Origin: Psychrobacter cryohalolentis K5
Lineage (GTDB): Bacteria > Pseudomonadota > Gammaproteobacteria > Pseudomonadales > Moraxellaceae
Assembly (NCBI RefSeq): GCF_000013905.1
Contig: NC_007969.1
Span: 3,000,001-3,032,000 of the forward strand
Direction: 5' to 3'
DNA: 32,000 nt
Positions 3,389 through 27,284 of the stretch are shown here, one piece after another. Below the pieces are notes generated by a model, which did no database searches, had not been told where the DNA came from, and saw only the letters and a list, made by a program, of their open reading frames with translations. A program made the position numbers and the translations under genes. Position 1 is the first letter of the stretch. Each line of letters begins with the position of its first letter.

Positions 3389-3416
3389 AAGAGTCTCAAT
3401 TGAGGCTCTTTTTTTA
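3389..3416 (+). terminator. Rho-independent terminator after nqrF
   Basis: The gagtctca / tgaggctc stem (one G-U pair) is followed by a T7 run. Confidence 0.6.
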
Positions 3417-3439
3417 TGGGCGAAACGGAAAGGATTCCT

Positions 3440-4240: not shown

Positions 4241-4292
4241 ATCTAGCATGTTAAATAACTATAATTAGTGACATGTGATATCGCTACATCAC

Positions 4293-4367
4293 GTACGGCT
4301 GGTATTAATTTTTCTTGCTTGCTATGCCTACATAGACCGCAAAAAATTCATACCAGCCCTACCGTAG
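4293..4367. repeat. Hairpin-forming intergenic repeat, copy 1
   Basis: Core 4299-4337 matches 20968-21006 at 34 of 39 positions (hand alignment). The terminal arms ggctggtat (4297-4305) and ataccagcc (4350-4358) are complementary. Confidence 0.6.
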
Positions 4368-4526
4368 CTTTTTTAGGTATTTTAGCTATATATATTACAT
4401 AGCAATCAATATCTGAAAATGTTTTAAGCCAACAATTGGCGTTATGGGTGACAAGGGGTGTAAAATAGGCAACGCTTAGCTTATTTAATAGCTAACGCCT
4501 CATTTATCCCTTCGCTATATCAAGTT

Positions 4527-5687: not shown

Positions 5688-5837
5688 ATCTAAAAACACT
5701 AATAGAAGCTAATTCGGTATCTTTCTGAAATTGTCTTACTAAGCTGAGAAGCTCAAACGGACAAGATGAATTTTTGCTATACTATTAAGAGGTTATCACA
5801 CAGATAACCGTCCTACTTTTAACGCGAGGTCTCCTCT

Positions 5838-6083
5838 ATGCTTAGCCAACTGCTTCCCATGCTTGCTATCACCTTTACCGTATTCATGCTGTTTTTTATC
5901 TTTATGGGTATCGGTTATATGGTCAATAAAAAGCCGCTTAGAGGATCTTGTGGCGGTGTTGCCAAATTGATGGGCAATGAGAAATGCTCGTACTGCGGTG
6001 ATGATCCTAATAAATGCGATTCTCTAATCGCTGAACAACAAGAGAACGCTTTAAAAGCGGCTCAATTGGGCAAATCAGTATAA
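5838..6083 (+). CDS. nqrM: (Na+)-NQR maturation protein NqrM (DUF539)
   Basis: 81 aa with one N-terminal TM helix followed by a Cys cluster (GSCGG ... CSYCG ... C). It follows apbE as in other nqr loci. Confidence 0.8.
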   Translation: MLSQLLPMLAITFTVFMLFFIFMGIGYMVNKKPLRGSCGGVAKLMGNEKCSYCGDDPNKCDSLIAEQQENALKAAQLGKSV

Positions 6084-6136
6084 ATAGTCGGTTTGTTACC
6101 ATACGCTGGTAGTATTTAGCCGTCATTTGTTCTTAT

Positions 6137-6181
6137 AATAGCGCCAGACCTTATAAAAAAAGGGCTGGCGCTATTTTTTTA
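6137..6181 (+). terminator. Rho-independent terminator after nqrM
   Basis: The aatagcgccag / ctggcgctatt stem is followed by a T-run at 6174-6181. Confidence 0.7.
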
Positions 6182-6409
6182 TGGCGCAGCGTTATTGTTC
6201 TACATCACTACTTATAGATATTCATATTGCCTTACCCGTTAAGGTAGCAAGTTCATATGAATTGCTTTCTGCCAATATTTCGATATTCTATTTTTTCGTC
6301 TCACTCATCTTCTTTGTGAGATTTTTTCGGTGTTATTTTGCAAGCGACGACTCTTCGGCGCTGTTTAATGACGTGTCCTTTTTCTTATTCTAATAATAGT
6401 CGTGCTGCC

Positions 6410-7687
6410 ATGTCTACCTCTCCTAATGTGCAAAATGATTTGCCTTTACAGTCTCAGACGGATAAGCCTTTGCCGTTTCAGCTGCCCTCTTCGCGCTTTA
6501 CGTTTTGGCTGGTGCTATGTGCCATGATTCTATTGGCGACCAATATGCGCTCGCCCATTGTGGCACTAGGTTCTATAGCGCCGGTGGTTCAAGGAGCGCT
6601 CAATATCTCCGAAACCCAAATTGGCTGGCTTGGCGCGGTGCCGATGCTGACTTTTGCACTTGGGGCTTTTATTTCGCCAGCGATTGGTAAGCGTTTTGGG
6701 CTTGAAAACACTTTAATTGCGATGATTAGCCTCCTAACAATAGGTATGATTATTCGCAGCCTTATTCCCACTTGGATGGGGTTTTTGGGCGGCACATTAC
6801 TGTTGACGTTAGCGATTGGTTTTGCTAATACCCTTGCGGCGCCTGTTATCAAGCAACGTACGCCCAATCATATTCCTTTAGTTACTGGATTATTCAGTCT
6901 CACTATGACCGTGTCGGCAGGGATTGTCGCGGGCGTGGTCTTGCCATTATCTGAGCAAGTAGGCTGGCAATGGGCGCTTGGTGGTTGGTCGATTTTGGGC
7001 GTCTTTGCCTTAATAATATGGGTACTGCTACGACTGCGTTTGGGTTCTTCAAACCATCAGCCCGTAGTACCGCTTGCTGAAGGCGTTCAAGCCCCATCGC
7101 CCATCTCTATGTGGCGCACACCCTTTGCTTGGCAAATTGCGATATTTATGGGCTTACAATCGCTGCTTTTTTATACGGCTGCCAGTTTTTTACCGTCGAT
7201 TTGGCTCAGTAAAGGCTTGTCAGCAGTAAGCGCGGGACAGATGAACTCGGTATTCCAGTTTATGGCACCTGTGGCGATTTTAAGCTTAACATGGTTGGTC
7301 AATCGTGGACGACCTATTCAGGCACTGGCGGTACTTGCAGCGGTTTTAAATGTGATTGGTATCTTAGGTGTCAGCTATTTATCTGCTGATTTGGCGTGGT
7401 TGTGGTCGGCGCTGATGGGCATTGGTTGTTCAGCGATTTTTACCTTAAGTATGATGCTGTTTTCAATGCGTACTTATACCGCCAATCAATCAAGTGAGCT
7501 ATCGGGTATGGCGCAAGCAGTCGGTTATTTGATTGCGTTTTTTGGTCCATTGGGGACTGGTTGGTTACATGAAGCAACGGATAGCTGGGATTTGCCCTTA
7601 TTGATTATGCTGATATTGATGGTGGTAAACGTAGGATTTGCATGGCTGGTCAGCCGTCCGGTGATGGTCGATGGGAAGAAGGTTTAG
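6410..7687 (+). CDS. MFS transporter, CynX/YeaN-like
   Basis: About 12 predicted hydrophobic helices with an MFS-like layout. The start is uncertain. The ORF track uses TTG 6338. I prefer ATG 6410 (MSTSPNV...), but no clear RBS is visible. Confidence 0.75.
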   Translation: MSTSPNVQNDLPLQSQTDKPLPFQLPSSRFTFWLVLCAMILLATNMRSPIVALGSIAPVVQGALNISETQIGWLGAVPMLTFALGAFISPAIGKRFGLENTLIAMISLLTIGMIIRSLIPTWMGFLGGTLLLTLAIGFANTLAAPVIKQRTPNHIPLVTGLFSLTMTVSAGIVAGVVLPLSEQVGWQWALGGWSILGVFALIIWVLLRLRLGSSNHQPVVPLAEGVQAPSPISMWRTPFAWQIAIFMGLQSLLFYTAASFLPSIWLSKGLSAVSAGQMNSVFQFMAPVAILSLTWLVNRGRPIQALAVLAAVLNVIGILGVSYLSADLAWLWSALMGIGCSAIFTLSMMLFSMRTYTANQSSELSGMAQAVGYLIAFFGPLGTGWLHEATDSWDLPLLIMLILMVVNVGFAWLVSRPVMVDGKKV

Positions 7688-7777
7688 TTTTTATCATTAA
7701 TCGATTAACTTTTGCACCATATTGCTGTTTATCTGATTCTGCTAGACTGGCTCTATTGCCTATAGGACAGCAGAATT

Positions 7778-8590
7778 ATGATGAACAGACCTTTTCGCTT
7801 GCCGCAGCGCTTGCTCACGGTTGTCGCATTGACGGTAGCAATCGCAATCAGTGGTTGCCAAAAAACGCCTGATGCTAATGAAGCTCAGACGGATACTGGC
7901 AGTCAAAACAGCAATAAAAATACCAGTCAAACCTCCGATATCCAAGTGTCTCAAACCACATCTACAACGAACCCTGCTGAACAACCAGCGCCTTTGACCA
8001 TATTGGCATTAGGTGACTCGTTAACCGAAGGGCTTGGCGTTGATAATGATGACAATTACCCTGCTCAATTACAAACACGCTTACAAGAACTTGGTTATAA
8101 AGATGTAAAAGTCATCAATTCAGGATTGAGCGGCGAGACCAGTACCGGTTTGGTCAATCGCTTGGATTGGGTATTACAGACCAAACCTGATATCACTATT
8201 TTGACCATTGGTGCCAATGATGCTATTCGTGGTATTGATGTCGCGACGGTTGAAGCAAATATTCGTACTGCCGTAAAACGCTTACAGGACAATGACAGCG
8301 TGGTTATCTTGGGCGGTATGCAGATCTATGACAACCTTGGCTCTGATTATGTAAAATCTTTTGCAGCGATATATCCAAGAGTGGCGAAAGACATGAACGT
8401 GACGCTTATTCCGTTCTTTTTAGACGGTGTTGGCGGCGACCCTAAGCTCAATCAAGCCGATGCCATTCATCCGACCAAAGAAGGTTATACGCTGATCGTT
8501 AATAACAATATCTTGCCGATATTACAGCCTGAGCTTAAAAAAATAAATCCGTCGAATGTGACCAATACGCCTACTGAGACAGCACAATGA
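7778..8590 (+). CDS. SGNH/GDSL hydrolase lipoprotein, TesA-like (arylesterase / thioesterase I / lysophospholipase L1 family)
   Basis: Lipobox AISGC, then the SGNH blocks LALGDSLTEG, GxSG, GANDA and DAIHPT. Confidence 0.85.
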   Translation: MMNRPFRLPQRLLTVVALTVAIAISGCQKTPDANEAQTDTGSQNSNKNTSQTSDIQVSQTTSTTNPAEQPAPLTILALGDSLTEGLGVDNDDNYPAQLQTRLQELGYKDVKVINSGLSGETSTGLVNRLDWVLQTKPDITILTIGANDAIRGIDVATVEANIRTAVKRLQDNDSVVILGGMQIYDNLGSDYVKSFAAIYPRVAKDMNVTLIPFFLDGVGGDPKLNQADAIHPTKEGYTLIVNNNILPILQPELKKINPSNVTNTPTETAQ

Positions 8591-9276
8591 CATCAGCATT
8601 ACCTACCTCGCAAGCAGCGCTGCTCACTGCCACTAAGCTAAATAAAACCGTACACGTTGGTGACCAGTCCTTGTCTATTATTAAAGACGTCGACATTCAC
8701 GTTAATGCTGGCGAGTTTGTGGTGATCATGGGTAAATCTGGCTCTGGCAAATCCACCTTGTTGGGTTTGTTAGCGGCATTAGATTATCCTGATAGCGGCG
8801 ACGTTGAGCTGGCAGGTCAAACCTTAAGCCGATTAAATGAAGATGCGCTAGCCATCATTCGACAGCGCGATATGGGGTTTGTTTTTCAATCCTTTCATCT
8901 ACTACCAACGCTAACCGTTGCTGAAAACATCGCTTTTCCATTAGATATTGCCCGTCGCCCAGATGCGGCGCGTGTCGATGAGTTGATGGAGGCAGTTGAT
9001 TTGGGTCATCGGCGTCATAGCTTGCCAAACCAGTTATCAGGTGGCGAGCAGCAGCGTACAGCAGTTGCTCGCGCATTGGTATCACGCCCAAAGATTGTAT
9101 TTGCTGATGAGCCTACCGGCAACTTAGATGAACAAAATGCCAATCAAGTGATGCAGCTATTACTGGATTTGCGTCAGAAAACTGGCTCAGCGTTGGTAGT
9201 GGTCACCCATGATTCAGCACTAGCTGACATGGCAGATCGCGTTATCACCATGCATGATGGGCGGATTGTATCGTAA
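8587..9276 (+). CDS. ABC transporter ATP-binding protein (YbbA/LolD-like)
   Basis: Walker [10 protein letters not shown], signature LSGGEQQR, Walker [17 protein letters not shown] overlap with the upstream stop at 8587-8590. Confidence 0.9.
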
Positions 9277-11942
9277 TGGATAATAAAAATGTAGAAGACA
9301 CCTCATCGACTGATATTACTAATACCACCATGGCTAAAGAGTCAGACGCTAATGGCGGTATCGTACGCCAGCTATTGACGAGTACCCTTGGTTTACAAAA
9401 ATTAGGTTTACAAGGATTGGGTGCGCAAGCACTCAGCCGTAGCTGGTGGCAGCGCTGGATATATCCAGTATTATTTTTACTGACTTTGACGCTGTCACTT
9501 GCGACCTACCTCACACTGGACTCTATCCAGCAGTCAGTTGACACCTATATCAATGATAATCAGCGCGCTTTGGTCGGTGGCGATTTAATATTAAACAGTA
9601 AGCAAGATTGGCCAAGCGAAGTATTAACGCAGATTGATACCCTTGCCGACACACAAACGGTTTTTGACTATCAGTTTAGCGCGATGGTCGTCACTGATGA
9701 GCAGACTTTGCTTGCCAGCATAAAAGCAGTTTCCCAATCCTACCCATTATATGGTGACGTCGAGCTGGCATCAGGACAGTCCTTATGGCAGCAGCTTACA
9801 GCCAATAATATAGTGGTCGCCCCCGAAGTACTCAAAAGTTTAAACGCTGATATTGGTGACCAAATCACTATTGGTGATGCGCAATTCATCATTAGTGATG
9901 TGCTGACAAAAGAGCCTGACCGTCCGCTGAGCGCCTTTGGCTTTGGTGGGCGTATTTTGATGCCCCAGCAGGCATTAGAGGCAACCAATCTATTGGGACA
10001 GCGTAGCCGTATTAATTACCGTATTGAGCTGGCAGGTAATGCAGAATTGATGGCGACCCAGCGCGATAAACTGACGCAAATATTGACGAATTATCCTGAT
10101 ATCGAGCTCTCTGATGCAGAATCTGCGGACACCTCGGTATCGCGTATCTCTGATAATGTATTGATGTTTTTAAAGCTTTTGGTCATTGCCGTATTGTTAT
10201 TGTCCGCAGTGGCTATGTATGGCGTCATCACAGCATTTGTGACCAAGCAGCAGTCGAGCAATGCGATACGTTTGGCACTGGGTGAGCCCCTTAAGTCGCT
10301 AAAACGCAGCTACTATCAGCTCCTTATTATCACTGCCATCATCGCTTGTATCGCAGCAATTTTAGTCAGCTTTGGCTTACTCAAAGTCGGTCAGCCTTAT
10401 CTTGTGGCTATCTTGCCAACGGATGTCAGCTTGGCTATTAATCCTATTAGTGCCATCAAAACCACCGTCATAGCCTTGGTGCTTACGCTACTCATCGCCC
10501 AACGTGGCTTGAGCGCATTGAATACCACCAAACCTGCTACCTTGCTCAATCAAGGTGCAAGCTCAGCTGTGCAACACCTGCCTTGGTATAAACGCTTGCC
10601 GTTACTTTGGTATGGGTTGATGCTGGCTGGTCTATATGTGTTTTTTGTTTATGAAGTAGGTGGATGGTTATTTGGCGCGCAGTTATTAATCGGTTTAATT
10701 GGCTTTGTGAGTATATTTTGGCTATTGGCACGCGGCTGGCTGTGGTTACTGGCACGTATCGCAAGTAACGCTAAAATAGGCTGGATGCAGCGTATTGCGA
10801 TTCATAACCTTGCGCGTAAAGGCAACCAATCGGCATTATTTTTTGTCACCTTAGCACTATCGGTAGCCGTACTGACTCTCATTACAACACTTAATTACAG
10901 TATCAACGCCCAGTTTATTAACGCTTATCCTGAAGATGCACCCAATTTATTTTTGTTAGATATTCAGAGTAATCAGCATGATGAGATTGATAGCATTATT
11001 GGCGCACCAGTGAGCTACTACCCTGTTATACGCGCTCGAGTAGTGACTGCCAATAATATACCTGTGCAGGATATCGAGCCTGCTGATGGCTTTGATGACC
11101 CTGCACGTGTCTTTAATCTCAGCTATGCAGATACAGTAATGGACACTGAATTCATTACGGATGCTGTAGTAGACAATCAGCTGTATGCACCCATTAACAA
11201 TGAAAATAAAGACTCATCGTCAACCGTTGCGCCTTTATCTATTTTGGATACTGCTGCCAGCTTACTGAATGTCGGTATGGGTGATGAAGTGCGTTTTAAT
11301 ATCCAAGGGATTGAAATCGTCGGGCAGATTACCAGTATCCGCTCGCGTTTCGAGCAAGGACCCAGTCCTTATTTTTACTTTTTATTTGAGCCAGCTGTTC
11401 TCTCTGCTGCCCCGCAGATTCAATTTGCCACCGCCCATGTAAACGCTGATGATATTCCAGATCTGCAAGGAAAAATGGTACGACAATTCCCTGCGGTGAC
11501 GACGATAGACGGTACAGCTATCGCTCAGCAAATTCAAGAGCTTGTGGTGCAAATGAGCCGTTTGGTCTACGTCTTTACGCTACTCGCCTTACTGACTGGT
11601 GTCATGGTACTGATTAGCTCGTTATTATCCACCTCACAAGACCGTCTGCAAGAAAGCGCCTCATTTAGGCTGCTAGGGATGCAAAAACGCGACTTGTATA
11701 TGCTAAACATACTAGAGCTTGGGGTATTGGGAATTAGTGCGGCGACATTTGCGATCATTATCGCCAGCGTGGGCGCATGGGCTGCCCTCACCCAATGGTT
11801 TAATCTACGCTTTAGTGTGCCATGGGCAAGCCTGAGTATTGGTAGTATGGCGTTAGTCGTATTGCTGTTTGCCATTGCCATTATTTATGTGAGACTGGTG
11901 ATTGGTCGCGGGATTATGGCGAGGGTAAGGGCGATGATCTAA
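9276..11942 (+). CDS. FtsX-family ABC transporter permease (YbbP-like, duplicated FtsX/MacB-type domains)
   Basis: 888-aa protein with two hydrophobic clusters, each following a large soluble domain. TAATG overlap with the ATPase gene at 9274-9278. Confidence 0.8.
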   Translation: MDNKNVEDTSSTDITNTTMAKESDANGGIVRQLLTSTLGLQKLGLQGLGAQALSRSWWQRWIYPVLFLLTLTLSLATYLTLDSIQQSVDTYINDNQRALVGGDLILNSKQDWPSEVLTQIDTLADTQTVFDYQFSAMVVTDEQTLLASIKAVSQSYPLYGDVELASGQSLWQQLTANNIVVAPEVLKSLNADIGDQITIGDAQFIISDVLTKEPDRPLSAFGFGGRILMPQQALEATNLLGQRSRINYRIELAGNAELMATQRDKLTQILTNYPDIELSDAESADTSVSRISDNVLMFLKLLVIAVLLLSAVAMYGVITAFVTKQQSSNAIRLALGEPLKSLKRSYYQLLIITAIIACIAAILVSFGLLKVGQPYLVAILPTDVSLAINPISAIKTTVIALVLTLLIAQRGLSALNTTKPATLLNQGASSAVQHLPWYKRLPLLWYGLMLAGLYVFFVYEVGGWLFGAQLLIGLIGFVSIFWLLARGWLWLLARIASNAKIGWMQRIAIHNLARKGNQSALFFVTLALSVAVLTLITTLNYSINAQFINAYPEDAPNLFLLDIQSNQHDEIDSIIGAPVSYYPVIRARVVTANNIPVQDIEPADGFDDPARVFNLSYADTVMDTEFITDAVVDNQLYAPINNENKDSSSTVAPLSILDTAASLLNVGMGDEVRFNIQGIEIVGQITSIRSRFEQGPSPYFYFLFEPAVLSAAPQIQFATAHVNADDIPDLQGKMVRQFPAVTTIDGTAIAQQIQELVVQMSRLVYVFTLLALLTGVMVLISSLLSTSQDRLQESASFRLLGMQKRDLYMLNILELGVLGISAATFAIIIASVGAWAALTQWFNLRFSVPWASLSIGSMALVVLLFAIAIIYVRLVIGRGIMARVRAMI

Positions 11943-11966
11943 GTATCTTCAGTTTTCGCTTCATAT

Positions 11967-11982
11967 AAAAAACCCTCTTAAT
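11967..11982. terminator. Left half of a bidirectional terminator split by the IS
   Basis: aaaaaaccctct+taat. With the IS removed it joins 13410-13421 to give aaaaaaccctct-taat-agagggtttttt. Confidence 0.6.
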
Positions 11983-12006
11983 TGAACTGACCCCCAAATG
12001 TTGGAC
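11983..12006. repeat. IS terminal inverted repeat (orfB-distal end)
   Basis: TGAACTGACCCCCAAATGTTGGAC compared with the reverse complement of the other end, TGAACCGACCCCCATAAGTTGGAC. Confidence 0.85.
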
Positions 12007-12014
12007 GGTTTAGT

Positions 12015-12818
12015 TTATATCAAGGACTGAGTTCTGTACTTAACAGGACTCAGTCCTTTTAGTTTGAGTTGAATTCTTTCATGATTATAGTAGTGAATAT
12101 ACTCATGAATCTGTTTCTCTAAACCTTCAATCGAATTAGGCTTTTCAATATAAATCGTCTCACACTTTAGGGTACCAAAGAACCCCTCCATGAGCGCATT
12201 ATCCAAACAGTTGCCTTTTCTGCTCATACTTTGCTTAATACCATGCTGTTTCAGCACCTGTCCAAACAGTCTCATTTGATAATGCCATCCTTGATCAGAG
12301 TGCAGCATTAACTTGTTATCACGGCACGCTTTCGTCTTTGCCAAAGCATCCTCTAGCATCTTGCCAACTAAGTCATAAGTGGGTCTCTTTGAGAGTGTAT
12401 AACTGACAATCTCATTGTTATAACAATCAAGTATGGGTGACAAATACAGCTTATCATCACCCACCTTAAACTCAGTAATATCGGTCAGCCAGCGCTTATT
12501 TGGTTTATCTGCATGAAACTGGCGTTTTAAATAGTTCTTCGCAATCTTACCTTGTTGTCCTTTATAGGAGCGATACTTCTGACGTCTTATCTTTGCGCTA
12601 AGCTTCATGTCATGCATAAGCTTAGCGATGAGCTTATGGTTATGATGACAATCTAGCTGCTTTAATGCAGCCGTGACTCTACGATAACCATACCTGCCTT
12701 TATGCTGATGGTAAAGCTCAGTAATACGCTGTTTTAAGTCTCCATATTTGTCTTTAACGTCAAACTGACACCTATGGTAGTAAAAGACACTTTTAGCCAT
12801 CTTAGCGATGTTTAGCAA
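12015..12818 (-). CDS. IS3-family transposase OrfB (DDE catalytic domain), probably made as an OrfAB fusion
   Basis: DDE triad context: WLTDITEF, LHSDQGWHY, DNALMEGFFGTLKCE. The orfB frame stays open upstream to the A5G run at 12863-12869, reading ...KKARLIEALRQEHPLSALLNIAKMAK. Confidence 0.9.
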   Translation of the reverse strand: MLNIAKMAKSVFYYHRCQFDVKDKYGDLKQRITELYHQHKGRYGYRRVTAALKQLDCHHNHKLIAKLMHDMKLSAKIRRQKYRSYKGQQGKIAKNYLKRQFHADKPNKRWLTDITEFKVGDDKLYLSPILDCYNNEIVSYTLSKRPTYDLVGKMLEDALAKTKACRDNKLMLHSDQGWHYQMRLFGQVLKQHGIKQSMSRKGNCLDNALMEGFFGTLKCETIYIEKPNSIEGLEKQIHEYIHYYNHERIQLKLKGLSPVKYRTQSLI

Positions 12819-12841
12819 AGCAGATAAAGGGTGCTCTTGTC

Positions 12842-13360
12842 TTAGTGCTTCGATGAGCCTTGCTTTTTGCCTGCTTGTTCCTCCGCTTTGAGCAAGGCAT
12901 CGAGCTTTTTTAGGTACGCAACCTCTGCACGTAGGTATTCATTCTCACGCTTAAGCTCTGCTAAGGTTTTCTCATCATCTGGTTTGCTTGTGATAAATGG
13001 CTTGGTCATGGCGGCTCTACCTTTAGGCTTGGTTATTAGTCCAGACATGCCTTGTTGTCGATATGCTTTGTGCCAGTGGCTAATTAAAGCAGGTGAGCTG
13101 ATATTAAATGTTAAAGCGACCTCGGATTGACTTAATCCTTGCGTCAGCATGGTCGTAATCACTTTGTATTTAAACCCACTGCTGTATTTAGCCTTACTTG
13201 TCTTTGGCTTGATCGCGTCTATACCACCGCTTTGATATTGCTTAACCCATTTTTGTACAAGTTTCGAATCTACTTTAAACTTCTCACTTGTGGCAAGTCC
13301 GGTATGTCCTTGCAGATAGTATGCGATGACTTGCATCTTAAAGTCTAGATCGTAACGCAT
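12842..13360 (-). CDS. IS3-family transposase OrfA (HTH DNA-binding plus leucine zipper)
   Basis: IS3 OrfA-like sequence (SQSEVALTFNISSPALISHW, then a heptad-rich C-terminus). I prefer ATG 13360 (MRYDLDF...) with a GGGGG RBS. The ORF-track ATG at 13387 lies inside the terminal hairpin and inverted repeat. Confidence 0.85.
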   Translation of the reverse strand: MRYDLDFKMQVIAYYLQGHTGLATSEKFKVDSKLVQKWVKQYQSGGIDAIKPKTSKAKYSSGFKYKVITTMLTQGLSQSEVALTFNISSPALISHWHKAYRQQGMSGLITKPKGRAAMTKPFITSKPDDEKTLAELKRENEYLRAEVAYLKKLDALLKAEEQAGKKQGSSKH

Positions 13361-13381
13361 AAAAATACCCCCATAAGTTGT

Positions 13382-13405
13382 GTCCAACTTATGGGGGTCG
13401 GTTCA
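13382..13405. repeat. IS terminal inverted repeat (orfA-proximal end)
   Basis: See the partner repeat at 11983-12006. Confidence 0.85.
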
Positions 13406-13421
13406 TAATAGAGGGTTTTTT
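13406..13421. terminator. Right half of the IS-split bidirectional terminator
   Basis: taat+agagggtttttt, complementary to 11967-11978. Confidence 0.6.
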
Positions 13422-13606
13422 AATCCGTTAATCTTTGCTAGTCTAGGCAGCGGCTATACTTCTTGCTCAAGTAGTCACACAGAAACTTAGCGACTGCAAC
13501 TTGCCTAACTCGTCAGGATAACCGCTGCTATCAGGGCTAAACTGTGACTCCAGCCAATAACCATTACAAAACTTAAAAGATTTTTTAAACAATAAAGTAT
13601 CTTGGT

Positions 13607-15055
13607 CTATGTAATAGCAAGATGCTCTGCATGACTTATAGCACCCTTAGTTATGTAATCTCTAAACTCATCTTCTGACATCTTATTATGTCTTCCATCA
13701 TAAGTACCTGATACGCGATTATAAATTGAACGTGTACTGAATATTACAAATGAACCGCTAACATACCTACATATACGGTTTGCAGATTCTGGTAAATATT
13801 CACCATTGTACTCATTCTCGTCCCAATGAATTCTATCAACATACAGTGTTGGTTCAACTTCAACGACCTCTTCATATGAGTAATTGAAATACAAATTTTC
13901 ATATACATCTGTATGTGGAGATATTTCAACCTCTAATCTAAAATAATTCCACTGGGAGTCCATACCGAAAGATTCATAAGTAAGCTTTTTGGGTTTTAAA
14001 ATGTAGTAGGACTTTGGACTTGTTTGTATAGCTATAAACCCTTCTTCGTTAGCCATACTTGCACCAATGAATGTATTACCTCCCCCATCAGGCAAGAACA
14101 TATGATTTAAATTTTCAACCTGCGCAATTTGATTTAATATAATTAAAATATCATTTTTATCGACCCAAGTTACCGATTTCGGTGCTCCAGCAGGAAATAT
14201 ACTACGTTGTAAATCAAACCATTCTGTCAAATTCCTCGAATGGAAGTCATTATTAATTTCTGTCCACTCTTTTAACCTTCTAACAACCTCTATCATTTTT
14301 GGTCGCTGGTTTGGTGAATCTTCTGTACATTCTGTTAATAGAACATCGAATGATTTAGAGTATAGTCCTCCATAGTAATTGCTCAGACCTACAGTTGATA
14401 GAACATTATACTGTCCATCAAAACATTTATTATTACCAGTGATTGTAATCCAAAGAGTTTTGGCAAACGAATATACATCTGCAAACTCACCGCTAGCTAC
14501 ACTTGCATTGCGTCTCATTTCTGGTGCCATAGTAAACTTAGGACCAACATCTGTTTTTTCTTCAGTAATATCTTTATTATTAGGGAATTTAACAAGCCCA
14601 AAGTCTGCCAAATACAACCTATCGTCTACAAACAAAATGTTTGCAGGTTTGATATCGCGATGATAATACCCTTTGTCATGTAGATTTTTTATGGTTTCAC
14701 CCAAATTAGTTAGTTCTTTAATAGCTTCTAAGATGCTTTTACCTTCTCTCCACTTACTAAATTTAGTCCCTACTGGCATTATAAAATAAGGTAGGTTTTT
14801 CTTAAAGTCTGTATTTAGGTCATACTCTGTTATCTTCATAACACCATCAATATTTTGACTATCTAGCAAAGAACTTACTTCTCTTTTGAATCTTAAATAC
14901 GGATTTTCTCTTAAGTACTGTAGCAATTTAATAGCACCCACTTTATTACCTTTTTTTGCAATCCACACTTCTGCACTTCCGCCAGCTCCTAGCTTTTCTT
15001 GTAAAACCCATCCTTTAACCATAGTATCTTTTTTATATTTCTTTTTAGCAGACAT
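13607..15055 (-). CDS. Hanks-type Ser/Thr protein kinase with an unassigned ~217-aa C-terminal domain
   Basis: G-loop LGAGGSAEV (aa 22-30), VAIK-type Lys in GAIK (K43), alpha-C Glu in RFKREV, catalytic loop HRDIKPANIL (aa 132-141, nt 14662-14633), DFG (151-153), APE (177-179), subdomain XI NQRP. GGAG RBS sits 8 nt upstream of the ATG. Base composition is AT-rich relative to the neighbours. Confidence 0.85.
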   Translation of the reverse strand: MSAKKKYKKDTMVKGWVLQEKLGAGGSAEVWIAKKGNKVGAIKLLQYLRENPYLRFKREVSSLLDSQNIDGVMKITEYDLNTDFKKNLPYFIMPVGTKFSKWREGKSILEAIKELTNLGETIKNLHDKGYYHRDIKPANILFVDDRLYLADFGLVKFPNNKDITEEKTDVGPKFTMAPEMRRNASVASGEFADVYSFAKTLWITITGNNKCFDGQYNVLSTVGLSNYYGGLYSKSFDVLLTECTEDSPNQRPKMIEVVRRLKEWTEINNDFHSRNLTEWFDLQRSIFPAGAPKSVTWVDKNDILIILNQIAQVENLNHMFLPDGGGNTFIGASMANEEGFIAIQTSPKSYYILKPKKLTYESFGMDSQWNYFRLEVEISPHTDVYENLYFNYSYEEVVEVEPTLYVDRIHWDENEYNGEYLPESANRICRYVSGSFVIFSTRSIYNRVSGTYDGRHNKMSEDEFRDYITKGAISHAEHLAIT

Positions 15056-15104
15056 TCAGCGCACTCCACTCTCTATAAAATTTAAATAAATAACATTTTT
15101 TAAA

Positions 15105-15110
15105 ATTATA
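15105..15110 (-). promoter_or_regulatory. Possible -10 box (TATAAT) for the kinase gene
   Basis: A perfect TATAAT on the minus strand lies about 45 nt upstream of the kinase ATG. No good -35 is visible. Confidence 0.3.
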
Positions 15111-15243
15111 AAGTAATCTTAATAAATCATGTTGGAGATTTCTTAGACTTAGCTCTCCTCACCCCAGTCATTTGCTATACTAGCCTAACTTTTATCAATC
15201 AAATTCCTTCTTACAAAATCCTCCAAAACAGTATGGTAGTCTT

Positions 15244-16578
15244 ATGAAATTCTCAAAGTTCGGTCAAAAATTTACCCAGCCCACTGGCATCTCACAATTA
15301 ATGGACGATCTAGGCGACGCGCTAAAAAGCGATCAGCCTGTAAATATGCTGGGCGGTGGTAACCCTGCCAAAATTGATGCCGTCAATGAGTTATTTTTGG
15401 AAACGTATAAAGCGCTTGGTAATGACAATGATGCGGGTGAGGCCAATAGTAGCGCTATCATCAGCATGGCGAATTACTCTAATCCACAAGGTGATTCGGC
15501 CTTTATCGATGCCTTGGTTGGCTTCTTTAACCGTCATTATGATTGGAATCTGACCTCAGAAAATATCGCGCTGACCAATGGCTCACAGAATGCATTTTTC
15601 TATCTATTCAACCTATTCGGTGGCGCTTTCATTGATGAACAGAGCCAGTCTTTAGACAAATCCATTCTACTGCCATTGACCCCTGAGTATATCGGCTATA
15701 GCGACGTGCATGTCGAAGGTCAGCATTTCGCAGCGGTACTACCGCATATCGATGAAGTGACGCATGATGGCGAGGAAGGTTTCTTTAAATATCGCGTCGA
15801 CTTTGAAGCGTTAGAGAACTTGCCAGCATTAAAGGAAGGTCGCATCGGCGCGATTTGCTGCTCACGCCCGACCAATCCTACTGGCAACGTGCTGACCGAT
15901 GACGAAATGGCGCATTTGGCCGAGATTGCCAAACAGTATGACATACCGCTGATTATCGATAACGCCTACGGTATGCCCTTCCCTAACATCATCTACTCTG
16001 ACGCGCATCTGAATTGGGATAACAATACGATTCTATGCTTTAGCCTGTCTAAAATTGGCCTGCCCGGTATGCGTACGGGGATTATCGTGGCCGATGCGAA
16101 AGTGATCGAAGCCGTCAGCGCGATGAATGCGGTGGTGAATCTAGCACCGACAAGATTTGGTGCAGCGATTGCCACGCCATTGGTAGAAAACGATCGTATC
16201 AAGCAATTAGCTGATAATGAGATTAAGCCGTTTTATCAAAAGCAGGTCACCCTTGCCGTGAAGCTGTTAAAAGAAGCATTGGGCGATTATCCATTGATGA
16301 TTCATAAGCCTGAAGGCGCGATTTTCCTATGGTTGTGGTTTAAAGACTTGCCGATTAGTACGCTTGAGCTGTACGAGCGCCTAAAAGAAAAAGGTACGCT
16401 TATTGTACCAAGCGAGTACTTCTTCCCCGGTGTCGATGTCAGCGATTATCAGCACGCACACGAGTGTATTCGTATGAGTATCGCTGCTGATGAGCAAACA
16501 CTGACTGATGGTATTAGAGCAATTGGTGAAGTAGTACGTGAGTTGTATGATGAAGCTAAAAATAACAAAGCATCATAA
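15244..16578 (+). CDS. avtA: Valine--pyruvate aminotransferase (PLP-dependent, class I)
   Basis: The N-terminus MKFSKFGQKFTQPTGISQLMDDLGDAL...MLGGGNPA is AvtA-like. PLP-Lys context FSLSKIGLPG. Confidence 0.85.
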   Translation: MKFSKFGQKFTQPTGISQLMDDLGDALKSDQPVNMLGGGNPAKIDAVNELFLETYKALGNDNDAGEANSSAIISMANYSNPQGDSAFIDALVGFFNRHYDWNLTSENIALTNGSQNAFFYLFNLFGGAFIDEQSQSLDKSILLPLTPEYIGYSDVHVEGQHFAAVLPHIDEVTHDGEEGFFKYRVDFEALENLPALKEGRIGAICCSRPTNPTGNVLTDDEMAHLAEIAKQYDIPLIIDNAYGMPFPNIIYSDAHLNWDNNTILCFSLSKIGLPGMRTGIIVADAKVIEAVSAMNAVVNLAPTRFGAAIATPLVENDRIKQLADNEIKPFYQKQVTLAVKLLKEALGDYPLMIHKPEGAIFLWLWFKDLPISTLELYERLKEKGTLIVPSEYFFPGVDVSDYQHAHECIRMSIAADEQTLTDGIRAIGEVVRELYDEAKNNKAS

Positions 16579-16605
16579 CTTCAATGATAAAAATAGTTCA
16601 ATAGT

Positions 16606-16637
16606 AAAAAACGGACTTATGAATAGTCCGTTTTTTT
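16606..16637. terminator. Bidirectional rho-independent terminator between avtA and the convergent membrane-protein gene
   Basis: aaaaa-acggact-tatgaat-agtccgt-ttttttt. Confidence 0.75.
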
Positions 16638-17009
16638 CTGCCTTTTAATCATAGGTTTGACTGTACTGATTGACTGAAAAATCTTCGTCCACATGGTAAG
16701 TCCATAAAGCACATACGACAGCATACAAGTATTGATAATATCGTGGATACTTGCCATCAGCTCTGCGCTTTCTATCCCTGCGAGACCTAGCTCGGTAATG
16801 GTCTGACGGTTATCCAAATACTCGCCTAATAAAGCAATACAGGTCACCATAATTAAAGCGATAAACGCTCTGATACTGTATTTTTTGAAAATTGGACGCA
16901 GCAAAATAACGCTCAATAGATAAACACTGATGCCCACATAAATATGTAGGGCATCTTTTTCTAATCCTGTGGCACTCACGACGCCGTTTTTAAAGAGATA
17001 AAAGTCCAC
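16617..17009 (-). CDS. Hypothetical small membrane protein (3-4 TM segments)
   Basis: 130-aa ORF with hydrophobic stretches. I recognise no family. Its stop lies inside the terminator loop. Confidence 0.5.
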   Translation of the reverse strand: MDFYLFKNGVVSATGLEKDALHIYVGISVYLLSVILLRPIFKKYSIRAFIALIMVTCIALLGEYLDNRQTITELGLAGIESAELMASIHDIINTCMLSYVLYGLTMWTKIFQSISTVKPMIKRQKKTDYS

Positions 17010-17060
17010 TATTTATTCCACATATAAGAGAGTAGGAAGTCATTAAGCTTAAAATAAGAA

Positions 17061-21083: not shown

Positions 21084-22634
21084 TCATTTACTACGATAAC
21101 TGAGCGCTTCAGATACATGGGCGCTCGTGATATCCGCGCTGTCCGCCAAATCAGCAATAGTTCGTGCAACGCGTAGTACCCTATGGTAGCCACGAGCAGA
21201 TAAATTAAGGCGCTGCTGGGCGAGCTGTAATAGCTGCTGCTCGCCCGCCCCTAGCTGAATATATTTATCAATTTCACTAGGACTCAGCTCATTATTGACC
21301 TTGTTCTGTCGTATTAATTGGCGATTATGTGCTGCCGATACTCGAGTACGTACTTGCTCGGAGGTTTCTCCCGCTTGAGCGTTTTGCAAATCCGCAATCG
21401 GTAATGCTGGTACGGTAATATGTAAATCAATACGATCAAGTAGTGGTCCTGATAATTTATCTTGATAGCGTTTAATCTGCTCAGCTCTGCAACGACACCG
21501 CCCTGAGCCATCACCATCATAGCCACACGGGCACGGGTTCATCGCCGCCACCAGTTGAAAATTTGCTGGAAAGGTCATCTGTGAGTTGGCACGGCTAATA
21601 GTGATTTGTTTTGCCTCTAGTGGTTGGCGCAGTACCTCTAACACCGTACGATCAAATTCAGGCAACTCATCAAGGAATAGTACGCCCTTATTGGCAAGGG
21701 TAATCTCACCCGGTTTGGGACGTGAACCGCCACCGACCAATGCCACCGCTGATATGGTGTGATGAACTTGTCTAAAAGGTCGTGTGCCATAATCATAATC
21801 ACTATCGGCAACCGAATACGTACTGGCAACCTCTAGCGCATCTTCTGCACTCAAATCTGGCAAAATAGTTGGCAGGCGTGACGCCATCAAGGTCTTACCT
21901 GAACCCGGTGGTCCTGTAAGTAACAATGAATGACCACCTGCTGCTGCAATCTCTAAGGCACGCCGTGCATGATGCTGTCCTTTTACGTCTGCCAAATCTA
22001 CTTGATAGCCTATATGCTGCTGGATTTGATTTGGCTCTACTGCCGCTAAGCGCTCATCCGAAAGACTGCTATCGGTAAGTGACTGCAAGTGATTGCATAC
22101 GGCTTTTAAATTTGTCGCTGCCAATACGGTGATGCCATCCACACGGCTAGCTTCTGCCCCATTGATGGTTGGGACAATGAGTTGCCGTGTTGACGACATC
22201 ATTTTCTCATCACCTTTTAACAGTTGCGTCGCCAATACCTCAGCTTTCATTGCTCGTGCAACCGCCAAACTACCGCTTACTTGCCGCAGCTCACCATTGA
22301 GCGCCAACTCCCCAATAAACTCAAACCCTGACAATACCGTTGGATCCAACTGATCACTGGCTGCCAAAATACCGATAGCAATCGGTAAATCAAGGCGAGC
22401 ACCATCCTTTGGTAAATCGGCGGGTGCTAAATTAATCGTCAAACGTCTATTAGGAAACTGAAATCCAGAATTGAGTATCGCTGAGCGCACTCTATCCTTG
22501 CTCTCACGTACCGCCGCTTCAGGCAAACCAACAATGGTCAATGCTGGCAGTCCTTGCGACAAATGCACTTCAATGATGACCTCAGGTGCGTGCAGCCCGA
22601 CGACCGAGCGGGTATAGACTTGAGCAAACGACAT
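21084..22634 (-). CDS. comM: YifB/ComM family Mg-chelatase-like AAA+ ATPase (competence helicase)
   Basis: N-terminal Lon-like domain, Walker A GPPGSGKT, Walker B VLFLDELPEF, Cys cluster NPCPCGYDGDGSGRCRC. The gene is full length and uninterrupted. Confidence 0.92.
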   Translation of the reverse strand: MSFAQVYTRSVVGLHAPEVIIEVHLSQGLPALTIVGLPEAAVRESKDRVRSAILNSGFQFPNRRLTINLAPADLPKDGARLDLPIAIGILAASDQLDPTVLSGFEFIGELALNGELRQVSGSLAVARAMKAEVLATQLLKGDEKMMSSTRQLIVPTINGAEASRVDGITVLAATNLKAVCNHLQSLTDSSLSDERLAAVEPNQIQQHIGYQVDLADVKGQHHARRALEIAAAGGHSLLLTGPPGSGKTLMASRLPTILPDLSAEDALEVASTYSVADSDYDYGTRPFRQVHHTISAVALVGGGSRPKPGEITLANKGVLFLDELPEFDRTVLEVLRQPLEAKQITISRANSQMTFPANFQLVAAMNPCPCGYDGDGSGRCRCRAEQIKRYQDKLSGPLLDRIDLHITVPALPIADLQNAQAGETSEQVRTRVSAAHNRQLIRQNKVNNELSPSEIDKYIQLGAGEQQLLQLAQQRLNLSARGYHRVLRVARTIADLADSADITSAHVSEALSYRSK

Positions 22635-22968
22635 AAGCCTTTCCTATAGAGAGATTGATCGATCATAGAGGATTATTAATAAGTGCGCAAATGTTGCGTA
22701 TTTATTTGTTTGGTTTATTCACTAGCGTAGACGTTTGAAATTGTTATATGATTGAGAAATGCTTTTTGTTTATCATATTCATCAAATTTCTATAGGTTTT
22801 AAGTACATTTTGATGTTTTAACTGACATCACGATTAACCATTGAAAAGCCTGACGGTTAATAAACCTAAACAATAAAAAAGCATGAGCAATAAAAGGAAT
22901 TTATTGATCGTTTAAAGCATGTTGAATGATTTTCTGCTACATCTTTAAATAACACCAATTAACCATGG

Positions 22969-25440
22969 ATGGGTAAGCTTATGAGCATCAAAGTGCTTAA
23001 TCGGCGTGTGTACACGCTTACGTTATTAACGGCGGCAGTCTCATTGGGATTGTCTGGTTGTTCGGATAGTGACAATCTTAGTAGCAATGGAAATACTAAT
23101 GACACCTATGCAGTGGATATCCAGCGCACTGAGTTTGGTATCCCGCATATCACCGCTAAAGACTATAAGGGCTTGGGCTACGGTGTAGGTTATGCCTTTG
23201 CCGAAGATAATTTTTGTTCGCTAGCGCGTGAAGTTGTCGTTGCTAGAGGTGAAAGCTTGCTTTATTTAGGGGCTCAAGGCAACGAAGGAAGCGACGTTTT
23301 TTACACCTGGTATAACACCCCCGCCAGGCGTGCTGAATTTTTAGCAGCGCAAGACCCTGAAACTATCGATGCAGTCACAGGCTATGCTGCAGGCTTTAGC
23401 CGTTATCTACGTGATACAGGTGTGGCTAACATTGATCCTGCTTGTGCCAATGCCGAATGGGTACGTGAGATCACGCTAGATGATTTGTTGACGGTTTATG
23501 GCAAAGCCAACTTACGTGGTGGACTCTCTAACTTCGTCAGACAAATCGTAGACACAGCTCCCCCAGTGTCAGGTATCGTCATGGGTAGCTCTAGAATGAG
23601 TAGCCCTGAACCTATAGCAGAGTCGGTTGAAAAATTCGATATGACGACTATTAATGTATTAGATGGGGGTAGTAACGCTTATGCCTTTGGTAGTGAAGTA
23701 ACAGGTACTGATAGTGGCGTGATGTATGGCAATCCGCATGAACCATGGGAAGGCGTACAGCGTTTTTATGAGTTTCATACCACAATACCAGGTGAGCTTG
23801 ACGTGATGGGTTCAGCTCAGCAAGGGCAACCTTTTATCAATATCGGCTTTAATAAAGACGTGGCTTGGAGCCATACGGTATCGACTGCTAAGCGCTTTAC
23901 GCTTTATCAGCTTAGTCTAGTCAAAGGTAATCCTTTTAAATACAACTATGTCAACAGCGCAGGCATGGTTGAACAACGTGACATTGAAACGGTTCCAGTC
24001 ACTATTAAGATGCCAAACAATCAAACAATGACTCGAAACATATATGTTTCACAATATGGACCAATCTTAAACGCTAAACTACTTAATCCTAATTTACCAG
24101 CATGGGGTGATGCTAATAACGTCGTTTATACTATCCGTGACGCGGCTTCTGAAAATCCAAGAGCACTTAATCAGTGGCGTAGTATGAATATGGCCACTAG
24201 CGTTGAGGATCTCGTCGATAGAATGCAAAACATTCTAGGCCTAGGGTTTGTCAATACCATTGCTACTGATCGTAACGGTAAAGCGCTTTATGCTGATATT
24301 TCAACCGTACCTAATGTCACTAGAGAAAAGCTAGCAGCCTGTAGTGCTAACGCTGGAGCTGCTCTTCCTCTGCTGATTGCCTCAGACTTACCTGCACTTA
24401 ATGGTAGTACTGCTGCCTGTGAATGGGGTAATGATGCTGACTCTCCGCAAGCGGGGATTTTTGGTGGTTCAAACTTACCATTCATAATACGTGATGATTA
24501 TGCCCTTAATTCTAACGACAGTTATTGGCTCAGTAATGCAAAACAACCATTAACTGGATTCTCACCACTACTACAACGTAATTTAGTGTCTTTCGCTGGA
24601 GTATCAACTCCTGAAGCCACTCCATTGTCATTGCGGACTCGCATGGCGTTTACGCAAATCTTGGATCGATTAGATAATAAAGATGGTTTAGGTGGTACTA
24701 CTTTTAACATAAAAAATATGGAAGAAGTTGTCTATGGCAATCGTAGTTATGCGGCTGAACTGGTTCTCAATGATGTAATAGCTAATTGTAAAGAATTTCC
24801 TATATTACCTCTGACTGGCGGTAGTACCATCGATGCCACTCAAGCATGTAATATCTTAGCTACTTGGGATCGTCGTAATAATCTTGATAGCAAAGGCGCT
24901 CATATCTTTAGAAAATTTTGGACCAACCTTCGTGTTAGTGGACTTAATAATGCAGGATTCAGAACTCCTTTTAACGAAGCCGATCCAGTGAATACACCAC
25001 GTGATCTAATCATTAATGAGAACACGCGTAGAGCATTAGGTGACTCAATTGCTTACTTTAACAGTAAAAATATCGCGCTTGATGCCCCATTAGGCAGCTT
25101 GCAATTCGTTATTGATGCAGGCAAAAACGGTGAGAAAATTCCTATGCATGGTGGCTTTGGTCCTGAAGGCGTTTTCAACGTCGCAAGCTCAAGTCAAAAC
25201 AGCGATGGCACTTATGGTCCAGTGACCAATGGTCCAACTTATATGCAATCAGTAACGTTTGATAGTAAAGGCCCTGTCGTTGAAGCACTGCTAGCCTTCT
25301 CGCAAGCTGGTGATACGACTCGTCCTTTCCATCGTGATCAGACCCGTCGTTATTCTGCTAAAGACTGGATTCGTCTGCCTTTTAGCGCTGGTGAAATATC
25401 TAAGCAAGCCATTGGCAATAAGATTCAATTAAGAGAATAA
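22969..25440 (+). CDS. Penicillin/acyl-homoserine-lactone acylase family Ntn-hydrolase, lipoprotein
   Basis: Lipobox LSGCSD, a GGSNAYAFG site (the expected autoprocessing Ser nucleophile), about 820 aa overall. The start could instead be ATG 22981. Confidence 0.8.
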   Translation: MGKLMSIKVLNRRVYTLTLLTAAVSLGLSGCSDSDNLSSNGNTNDTYAVDIQRTEFGIPHITAKDYKGLGYGVGYAFAEDNFCSLAREVVVARGESLLYLGAQGNEGSDVFYTWYNTPARRAEFLAAQDPETIDAVTGYAAGFSRYLRDTGVANIDPACANAEWVREITLDDLLTVYGKANLRGGLSNFVRQIVDTAPPVSGIVMGSSRMSSPEPIAESVEKFDMTTINVLDGGSNAYAFGSEVTGTDSGVMYGNPHEPWEGVQRFYEFHTTIPGELDVMGSAQQGQPFINIGFNKDVAWSHTVSTAKRFTLYQLSLVKGNPFKYNYVNSAGMVEQRDIETVPVTIKMPNNQTMTRNIYVSQYGPILNAKLLNPNLPAWGDANNVVYTIRDAASENPRALNQWRSMNMATSVEDLVDRMQNILGLGFVNTIATDRNGKALYADISTVPNVTREKLAACSANAGAALPLLIASDLPALNGSTAACEWGNDADSPQAGIFGGSNLPFIIRDDYALNSNDSYWLSNAKQPLTGFSPLLQRNLVSFAGVSTPEATPLSLRTRMAFTQILDRLDNKDGLGGTTFNIKNMEEVVYGNRSYAAELVLNDVIANCKEFPILPLTGGSTIDATQACNILATWDRRNNLDSKGAHIFRKFWTNLRVSGLNNAGFRTPFNEADPVNTPRDLIINENTRRALGDSIAYFNSKNIALDAPLGSLQFVIDAGKNGEKIPMHGGFGPEGVFNVASSSQNSDGTYGPVTNGPTYMQSVTFDSKGPVVEALLAFSQAGDTTRPFHRDQTRRYSAKDWIRLPFSAGEISKQAIGNKIQLRE

Positions 25441-27258: not shown

Positions 27259-27284
27259 ATCCTTAGCCTCTAAAATATAAATAA

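Follow-up and report, generated by a model that had tools for sequence, protein, structure and literature searches.

To our knowledge, phage defence based on protein kinases is known from only a few cases, namely Stk2, PD-T4-6 and KKP. Here we describe a candidate addition: a stand-alone Hanks-type Ser/Thr kinase gene of Psychrobacter cryohalolentis K5, analysed within a 32,000-nucleotide stretch of contig NC_007969.1 (assembly GCF_000013905.1, positions 3,000,001 to 3,032,000). This whole stretch is called the window, and coordinates refer to it unless a locus is named. A first-pass annotation, made from the window's letters alone, had read the gene as a candidate stand-alone conflict or defence module, and the comparisons reported below support that reading as a candidate.

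The Stk kinase of prophage 933W reportedly aborts infection by the heterologous phage HK97 and is said to be triggered by a phage protein. PD-T4-6 (E. coli UMB0949, RRM76169.1, 436 aa, kinase residues 10-284) is a single Ser/Thr kinase validated against phage T4 (Vassallo et al. 2022, PMC9519451), and Stk2 of Staphylococcus epidermidis (Depardieu et al. 2016) acts, according to PMC11470126, by abortive infection through phosphorylation of host proteins. Hanks-type kinase domains are likewise used in phage defence by MAD6, by PglW of BREX/Pgl and by KKP of Pf prophages (PfkA/PfkB/PfpC).

The window kinase shares its organisation with PD-T4-6: each is a cytoplasmic Ser/Thr kinase of the eukaryote-like type, encoded by one gene and carrying a C-terminal region outside the kinase domain. 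The window kinase resembles Stk2 as a stand-alone Hanks-type kinase, Stk2 being carried on a mobile element (SCCmec) and activated upon phage infection. The likeness to 933W Stk is one of description only: both that protein and a homologue of the window kinase, in an SfV-like prophage of E. coli, are prophage-encoded eukaryote-like kinases. We regard the window protein as a candidate defence kinase of the PD-T4-6 and Stk2 kind that is a member of neither family.

The kinase gene and its product

The gene, the two parts of its product and the region upstream of it are located as follows (ORF, open reading frame; AF2, AlphaFold2).

13607..15055, minus strand: stand-alone Hanks-type Ser/Thr kinase gene, 482 aa, stop codon at 13607-13609 (ORF and translation)
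14282..15004, minus strand: kinase catalytic domain, residues 18-258 (Pfam, motif positions, Foldseek)
13610..14248, minus strand: conserved beta-rich C-terminal domain, residues ~270-482 (AF2, alignment with stand-alone forms)
15056..15243, no strand: divergent kinase/avtA intergenic region, GC 0.30 (sequence read, composition)

The interval first singled out, 13423-15243, consists of this 482-aa ORF and both intergenic spacers. The protein reaches 68.2 bits with Pfam Pkinase (PF00069; cut-off 31.7), its residues 18-258 corresponding to profile positions 3-258 of 263, and this protein kinase domain was the sole match in the Pfam scan. All the motifs from which the enzyme had been called competent are intact and in place: the G-loop GAGGSAEV at 23-30, AIK with K43, HRDIKPAN at 132-139, DFG at 151-153 and APE at 177-179. 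Across 53 homologues these motifs are invariant, as are the catalytic residues (K43, E59, K136 and N139 among them) and T164 and T175 of the activation loop. In an AF2 model of the full-length protein (pLDDT 90.2, pTM 0.82), Foldseek matched solved kinases, including PknI of Mycobacterium tuberculosis, at E values of ~1e-13 to 1e-14 and target TM-scores of 0.65-0.74, which indicates a bilobal kinase fold. By profile, motifs and model, the window protein is a catalytically intact Hanks-type Ser/Thr kinase.

As had been noted before, the gene appears to stand alone. No transmembrane (TM) segment was found in the product (the top 19-aa Kyte-Doolittle mean was 1.04), no phosphatase, FHA, PASTA, TPR or transporter partner adjoins the gene among the ORFs of the window, and no noncoding RNA or tRNA was found within the kinase islet. 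The gene had also been credited with its own ribosome-binding site and TATAAT box. Both sequences are present on the minus strand, with GGAG at 15064-15067, 8 nt ahead of the ATG, and TATAAT at 15105-15110, upstream of the gene; the assignment of a promoter fared less well, as a consensus promoter scan returned 11 sites where 10.7 were expected, which is not above chance.

Comparison with described kinases

At full length the window kinase is covered by none of the curated models of Pfam, NCBIfam and PADLOC. Its best PADLOC match is mad6 (E 1.7e-26). About 20 PD-T4-6 hidden Markov models (HMMs) match it at 1e-9 to 6.5e-24, in the kinase domain only, and such matches also label the core PASTA kinase of Streptococcus thermophilus. 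The difference from PD-T4-6 lies in the remainder of the protein: the match ends with the kinase domain (for example, at profile positions 4-214 of 292), the 215-aa C-terminal domain matches none of ~25 PD-T4-6 HMMs at E<=10, the C-terminal domain of the E. coli prophage homologue is likewise unmatched, and PD-T4-6 is ~46 aa shorter. With Stk2 only the catalytic core aligned (PADLOC E 3.1e-15, profile positions 129-329 of 500), and the extra region of Stk2 is N-terminal and unrelated. A tblastn search of phage records gave no full-length Escherichia phage match to the window kinase, so any relation to 933W Stk would be limited to the kinase fold.

Other Hanks-type families lie further away. 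The window kinase scores 61.9 bits with the MADS MAD6 model (NF047741, cut-off 460), and its neighbours are an insertion sequence (IS), ybbP and avtA. It scores 20.9 bits with PglW (NF033442, cut-off 990), there being no BREX genes in the window, and 59.7 bits with the PknB/Stk1 PASTA kinases (NF033483, cut-off 450), from which it differs in having no TM segment, PASTA domain or nearby phosphatase. Partner genes of MADS, BREX and KKP (methyltransferase, phosphatase and others) were not found in the window; a KKP-like trio does lie beside a homologue on a Rhizobium pTi plasmid. CapK/CapS (PMC13373217) was considered and found unrelated, CapK being of the anti-sigma type and not a Hanks-type kinase. 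Neither DefensePredictor nor the domain-centric screen nor the P2/P4 hotspot paper describes the family of the window kinase. The first-pass annotation did not recognise the protein as a member of any named system, which holds for full-length matches; PADLOC would label its kinase domain “PD-T4-6” or mad6. A PD-T4-6 label given by automated tools would rest on the kinase domain alone.

Acquisition and maintenance of the gene

The kinase lies between two conserved genes that are also present, without it, in related genomes.

9276..11942, plus strand: ybbP-like FtsX/MacB-type ABC permease gene, left flank (ORF; Pfam MacB_PCD and FtsX on the orthologue)
15244..16578, plus strand: avtA-like class I/II aminotransferase gene, right flank (ORF; Pfam Aminotran_1_2 on the orthologue)
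11951..15234, no strand: segment missing from the empty site of locus L027, comprising the kinase islet and the IS (blastn breakpoints, identity profile)

L027, from P. glacincola CCUG 34874, is the closest relative, with ~93% nucleotide identity in the left flank and 96% identity of the ybbP protein. Here ybbP and avtA abut without the kinase across a gap of 129 bp, which answers the synteny check proposed by the first-pass annotation; the blastn breakpoints place window position 11950 at L027 5881 and 15235 at L027 5992.

Composition agrees with this. The kinase gene has a GC content of 0.340 compared to 0.435 for the remaining window, only 1% of equal-length sliding windows fall below it, and its GC3 is 0.25 compared to 0.49 for avtA and 0.46 for ybbP. 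The G+C counts made by hand in the first-pass annotation were reproduced (10, 27, 20 and 21 in the lines starting at 14101, 14161, 14221 and 14281; 28 and 32 in those at 11041 and 15301), and the acquisition suggested there is borne out by the low GC and the empty site. Judging by composition and comparison of loci, the kinase gene is horizontally acquired. Conservation at this locus across the genus with native composition was not observed.

The same kinase was found at the same site, between ybbP and avtA, in eight independent contigs (L001-L008), at 96% amino acid identity. In a sliding identity profile the body of the kinase gene is 98% identical to the L001 copy at the nucleotide level, compared to ~75% for ybbP and ~92% for avtA. 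Given the contrast between kinase and ybbP, the gene has moved recently across diverged Psychrobacter lineages, arriving at the same site. That avtA was transferred together with the kinase was considered and rejected: avtA is about equally similar to L001 (0.92) and L027 (0.89-0.93), so that only the kinase (0.98) stands out against ybbP (0.75). The dN/dS ratio against the L001 copy is 0.17 overall, 0.14 for the kinase domain and 0.22 for the C-terminal domain, which marks a gene that is maintained and not decaying; by this measure it is under purifying selection.

The site between ybbP and avtA

To survey the site we fetched loci from 80 Psychrobacter/Moraxella species representatives with AvtA as anchor, and none of the 80 encodes the kinase. 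The counts that follow cover the 54 Psychrobacter loci with ybbP upstream of avtA, one per species, in which ybbP is 60-96% identical. The site is empty in 13 of these species, L027 included, with a spacer of 113-228 bp; in the other 41 it holds 1.3-5.1 kb of DNA with a GC content of 0.29-0.40. This cargo comes in ~34 arrangements with ~70 protein clusters, located at roughly positions 2400-6000 of loci L009-L070. Lead proteins of 18 of the 29 cargo types scanned match PADLOC families, and at least eight of these matches span the full length at E<1e-85:

L048: Septu PtuA, PADLOC E 2e-183
L010: AbiU, PADLOC E 2e-174
L046: retron RT-Toprim I-C, PADLOC E 3e-172
L053: DRT8 (Drt8), PADLOC E 2e-157
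L035: Lamassu LmuB, PADLOC E 3e-145
L017: Thoeris ThsA, PADLOC E 3e-110
L021: type II methyltransferase (restriction-modification, R-M), PADLOC E 2e-92
L064: AbiL (AbiLi), PADLOC E 7e-87

Further PADLOC matches in the site are to OLD-family, HEC-05/PDC-M55C, HEC-02A, NsnA-like, RT UG17, RmrA-like, PDC-S02 and DUF262-type proteins. These locus comparisons mark the ybbP|avtA junction of Psychrobacter as a defence hotspot with hypervariable cargo and place the kinase in a slot filled mainly by anti-phage systems.

Core-gene defence hotspots and integron defence “biobanks” have been described (PMC10121019; PMC12614218; bioRxiv 10.1101/2024.07.02.601719). The Psychrobacter site is like the known hotspots in being a fixed core-gene site with differing defence systems per strain or species and with empty alleles. 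It goes unmentioned in the papers turned up by our literature searches, whose targets were defence kinases and integron cassettes and not the hotspot itself. No integrase, tRNA or att repeat was found to mark the site, so that cargo is probably exchanged through homologous recombination in the conserved flanks.

About a third of the cargo types in the hotspot are unannotated. The PADLOC-negative types are candidate new systems, and the site may yield further defence systems. They encode proteins of 579 aa (L018/L029/L055), 575 aa (L066), 471+172 aa (L031/L034), 447 aa (L039), 389 aa (L013), 349+143+224 aa (L009/L011), 367+210 aa (L045), 317+233 aa (L065), 297 aa (L020), 277+184+270 aa (L037) and 266 aa (L022).

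Homologues in other hosts

A homologue search returned 1,900 matches at E<=1e-3, generic kinases included. At least 120 among the matches listed are full-length relatives (~480 aa, query coverage 94-100%). Hosts named among the matches listed are Vibrio, Acinetobacter, Marinobacter, Methylophaga, Shewanella, Pseudoalteromonas, Hydrogenophaga, Paraburkholderia, Massilia and Desulfomicrobium, and Bacteroidota and Acidobacteria are named as well. The contexts of the homologues include the following.

L096 (Vibrio furnissii), 10001-11431: homologue P0021, a single integron cassette
L089 (V. atlanticus): island with integrase, RES and DUF6988 genes
L091 (Acinetobacter): mobile element with IS, UvrD-like helicase and OLD-like ATPase genes
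L093 (Marinobacter): neighbours NERD, ParD and AAA_15
L098 (Pseudoalteromonas): conjugative plasmid, with an HNH gene adjoining the homologue
L099 (Rhizobium): pTi plasmid, with an adjoining kinase-kinase-PP2C trio and an ABC-3C system
L103-L112 (IMG/VR): ten viral contigs, each encoding a full-length homologue
L110 (E. coli/Shigella, IMGVR_UViG_2534682338_000012): SfV/SfIV-like prophage, with the homologue between tail-fibre/invertase genes and integrase

In every context examined the kinase homologue is alone: an all-against-all BLAST of neighbours in six contexts revealed no conserved neighbour gene. The upstream ORFs of L089 and L095, both of 216 aa, were considered as a shared partner and are unrelated, their equal length being a coincidence. 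The GC content of the homologue is below that of the host in each host examined, for example 0.39 compared to 0.60 in Marinobacter and 0.48 compared to 0.67 in Hydrogenophaga. The homologue neighbourhoods examined thus show stand-alone, low-GC genes on mobile elements or in defence islands, except that L094 and L095 lack such surroundings.

In V. furnissii, attC-like repeats of ~120 nt at L096 9864-9984 and 11442-11562 bound the kinase ORF, which recalls the integron biobanks. The surrounding region of chromosome 2 (L096 1-21431) is an integron array with at least 20 attC/VCR-like repeats, most of whose cassettes have no Pfam matches. DUF6988, found in the V. atlanticus island, has recently been tied to defence. 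In the E. coli/Shigella prophage the kinase homologue directly adjoins PD-T4-3 (E 1e-128), and the E. coli allele occurs in 3 of 5,426 complete E. coli genomes. Taken together, the contexts indicate that the kinase gene travels as a single gene, as integron cassette, prophage moron, plasmid cargo or island cargo.

Three genes fill the moron slot of this prophage (L110 4623-8387): the GIY-YIG gene of PD-T4-3, the homologue of the kinase (5977-7413) and a 205-aa ORF without annotation (7770-8387). The same slot holds gtr O-antigen genes in SfV and SfIV.

The C-terminal domain

Residues ~270-482, a domain not described before, are conserved as well as the kinase domain among the 53 homologues, with the motifs NHxFxPxGGG, KPxKLTxESFG, WNYFRLE, FVxFSxxSxYN and TYDxRHNKM..FRxYI. 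Modelled alone by AF2, this region adopts a compact beta-rich fold (pLDDT 92.0, pTM 0.88). It has no Pfam match, residues 263-482 have no PADLOC match even at E<=10, no fold match was found in the PDB or BFVD, and a profile-to-PDB sequence search was empty.

The first-pass annotation had called this domain private to the kinase, which proved incorrect. In the tblastn search against phage records only the C-terminal domain was matched, in Bacillus phage EZ-2018a (32.5% identity, E 5e-26), where it forms a protein of its own, and the same was found in related phage contigs.

L097 5983-6615, opposite strand to its neighbours: free-standing 210-aa domain ORF of Bacillus phage EZ-2018a (CP027117.1)
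L101 8001-8633 and L102 5001-5624: free-standing domain in related Bacillus phage contigs

No kinase of the window protein's family was found in phage EZ-2018a. In the large Bacillus phages the domain gene has an Ig-like structural gene on one side and a PD-(D/E)XK nuclease gene on the other. A degenerate DNA motif for TYD[GA]RHNKM gave 0 matches in viral contigs.

A profile of the domain, built from the phage proteins, was searched against 1.84 billion cluster representatives and found 819 relatives at E<=1e-3, 572 of them at E<=1e-10. Among the best 150 of the 819, 84 are stand-alone proteins of <=260 aa, ~26 consist of kinase and domain (~470-560 aa), 23 consist of kinase, domain and a further unannotated C-terminal region (560-812 aa) and the rest are mostly truncated kinases. 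For 18 fused or longer proteins, Pfam gave Pkinase or PK_Tyr_Ser-Thr as the sole significant domain in 14 and no match in 4; a few long forms of kinase and domain carry DUF3775 at the end. Genomes of Bacillota and Bacteroidota contain stand-alone forms. A host kinase matched to the Bacillus phage copy was sought with P0133, which scores best among those matches to the phage-protein profile that have the length of the two-domain form (kinase and C-terminal domain); its homologues included no kinase named as from Bacillus or Firmicutes that carries the domain.

The occurrence of fused and free forms in the contexts of conflict loci shows that the C-terminal domain is a discrete evolutionary module tied to kinases and conflict loci. 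Fused only to kinases or free, in phages too, it offers a candidate handle on sensing and possibly on counter-defence. It could be speculated that the domain is a widespread immune-sensing module and that the free phage copies are decoys or dominant-negative mimics that disarm kinase immunity. We consider this doubtful; if true, the phage copies would represent anti-defence by domain mimicry against kinase-based immunity.

In Pseudalkalibacillus hwajinpoensis (L100 4463-6642) the stand-alone domain protein P0124 follows a full-length DRT9 reverse transcriptase (E 5e-209) at a distance of 48 bp, in an island that also encodes an nSTAND3 protein and a serine recombinase. P0124 and DRT9 may be linked in function; as a partner of the stand-alone domain DRT9 was set aside, this being a single case that we take as co-location in an island only. 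Another stand-alone domain gene adjoins genes for an HNH-like protein and an AAA ATPase. The idea that neighbours of the stand-alone genes are cryptic kinases was rejected, as a kinase-family HMM gave no matches. P0124, P0135 and P0140, all of ~210 aa and without a kinase domain, are publicly annotated as “serine/threonine protein kinase”, a name apparently propagated from the fused form.

Proposed function and alternatives

We propose that the kinase gene is a self-contained, single-gene anti-phage module of the abortive-infection or exclusion type, an assignment that we think probable, short of confident. The reasons are the intact enzyme, its acquisition, its residence in the hotspot, its autonomy and mobility, and the precedent of Stk2 and PD-T4-6. 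By analogy with these two, the kinase would be held inactive in the uninfected cell, with the C-terminal domain keeping it in check. In the confident two-domain AF2 model the C-terminal domain packs against the kinase. This beta-rich domain may serve as a sensing or regulatory module that answers a phage-derived cue, upon which the kinase would autophosphorylate T164 and T175 of its activation loop. The active kinase might then phosphorylate host proteins, phage proteins or both, and productive infection would be blocked as by Stk2. The individual details of this mechanism, drawn from analogy, are considerably less probable than the defence role itself.

Several observations weigh against a role in defence. 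The PADLOC matches to PD-T4-6, mad6 and Stk2 are confined to the kinase domain, and PD-T4-6-type HMMs flag the housekeeping PASTA kinase of every S. thermophilus genome, whose phenotype is very mild. A PADLOC match is lacking for 11 of the 29 hotspot cargo types. The Hydrogenophaga (L094) and Shewanella (L095) homologues have neither defence nor mobile-element neighbours and are marked by a drop in GC only. No relative of the C-terminal domain with an established function was detected by our searches, and the sensing or regulatory role is one that we infer. The candidate role in defence rests partly on guilt by association, which is not proof.

Three other explanations were considered. One possibility is that the kinase is a conflict gene of mobile elements and not anti-phage, for example a toxin for addiction or post-segregational killing, or a factor in competition with plasmids or integrative and conjugative elements (ICEs) or in kin discrimination, and that the hotspot collects any selfish cargo. 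Homologues do occur on integrons, plasmids and prophages, with toxin-type neighbours such as RES and ParD, and kinase toxins such as HipA exist, one related system having recently been tied to defence. On the other hand, no small antitoxin-like gene adjoins the kinase and no neighbour is conserved in any context; the occurrence of the kinase as the lone gene of an integron cassette rules out a constitutively toxic protein; and most identifiable cargo at the same site is anti-phage. We regard this explanation as unlikely.

Another possibility is that the kinase derives from a phage and serves the phage life cycle, in host takeover or lysogeny control as with the T7 kinase or Pf KKP, the Psychrobacter copy being a stranded remnant. 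Such roles of phage kinases are documented (PMC13645617, PMC11341870). Consistent with a phage origin are the full-length homologues in 10 viral contigs and the SfV-like prophage, the stand-alone C-terminal domain in Bacillus phages and the match of PHROG 2361, “serine-threonine kinase”, to the kinase domain (7e-26). However, no phage genes flank the kinase in the window or in L001-L008, the E. coli prophage copy lies in a moron or accessory slot beside PD-T4-3 and not in a core module, and selection is purifying at a non-phage site, which together make this very unlikely. Prophage moron kinases that exclude other phages would count as defence, so that this explanation overlaps with the anti-phage module that we favour.

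An accessory signalling kinase for host physiology, such as a stress or cold response, whose place in the hotspot is a coincidence, would agree with the mostly regulatory roles of bacterial Hanks-type kinases, the matches of PD-T4-6-type HMMs to housekeeping kinases, the generic kinase assignment by Pfam and NCBIfam and the metabolic genes around the Shewanella and Hydrogenophaga homologues, but is scarcely probable given the strain-specific and very patchy distribution (0/80 Psychrobacter/Moraxella representatives, 3/5,426 E. coli genomes), the lack of a sensor TM segment, PASTA, FHA or phosphatase partner and the repeated appearance as prophage, integron and plasmid cargo with a foreign GC content in each host examined.

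The family is single-gene, catalytically intact and cleanly delimited, and its members in E. coli prophages and Vibrio integrons belong to hosts that are easy to work with, so that the proposed anti-phage role can be put to the test directly.

The insertion sequence and other variable positions

An IS3-family element interrupts the terminator between the convergent ybbP and kinase genes.

11983..13405, minus strand: IS3-family insertion sequence, 1423 bp (inverted repeat, sequence reads, ORFs)
12842-13387, minus strand: IS orfA (ORF)
12015-12818, minus strand: IS orfB (ORF)
11967..11982, no strand: left half of the terminator hairpin (A-run, stem CCCTCT at 11973-11978) and TAAT duplication at 11979-11982 (complementary to 13410-13421)
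13406..13421, no strand: second TAAT (13406-13409) and right half of the hairpin (AGAGGG at 13410-13415, T-run) (sequence read, repeat)

The element, found 197 nt past the kinase stop codon, has TG..CA ends with imperfect terminal inverted repeats. Its insertion point is the 4-nt TAAT loop of the CCCTCT/AGAGGG hairpin, and TAAT was duplicated. Excision of the IS in silico yields AAAAAACCCTCT-TAAT-AGAGGGTTTTTT, a bidirectional terminator hairpin. The first-pass annotation was correct that an IS lies downstream of the kinase. We rejected the IS as vehicle of the kinase for two reasons: L001-L008 have the kinase in this position but no IS, and the IS has its own TAAT target-site duplication inside the terminator loop. 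By its position and duplication, the IS3 element is a later, unrelated insertion outside the kinase module.

A second small variable spot was noted at window 16500-17010. It contains a 130-aa membrane-like ORF (16617-17009, minus strand, GC 0.37) with 66-69% identity to L001 and L027, compared to 89-96% for the surrounding genes.

Among the loci fetched, L081 (BMPS01000006.1, labelled Streptomyces cinereus JCM 3040) stands out: its AvtA shares 68% identity with the Psychrobacter protein and ranks among the sequences of Moraxella. Such an AvtA would be surprising in an actinomycete and points to contamination or a wrong label.

Other 500-bp bins of low GC (0.35-0.37) lie at window 27001-27500, 31001-31500 and 22501-23000.

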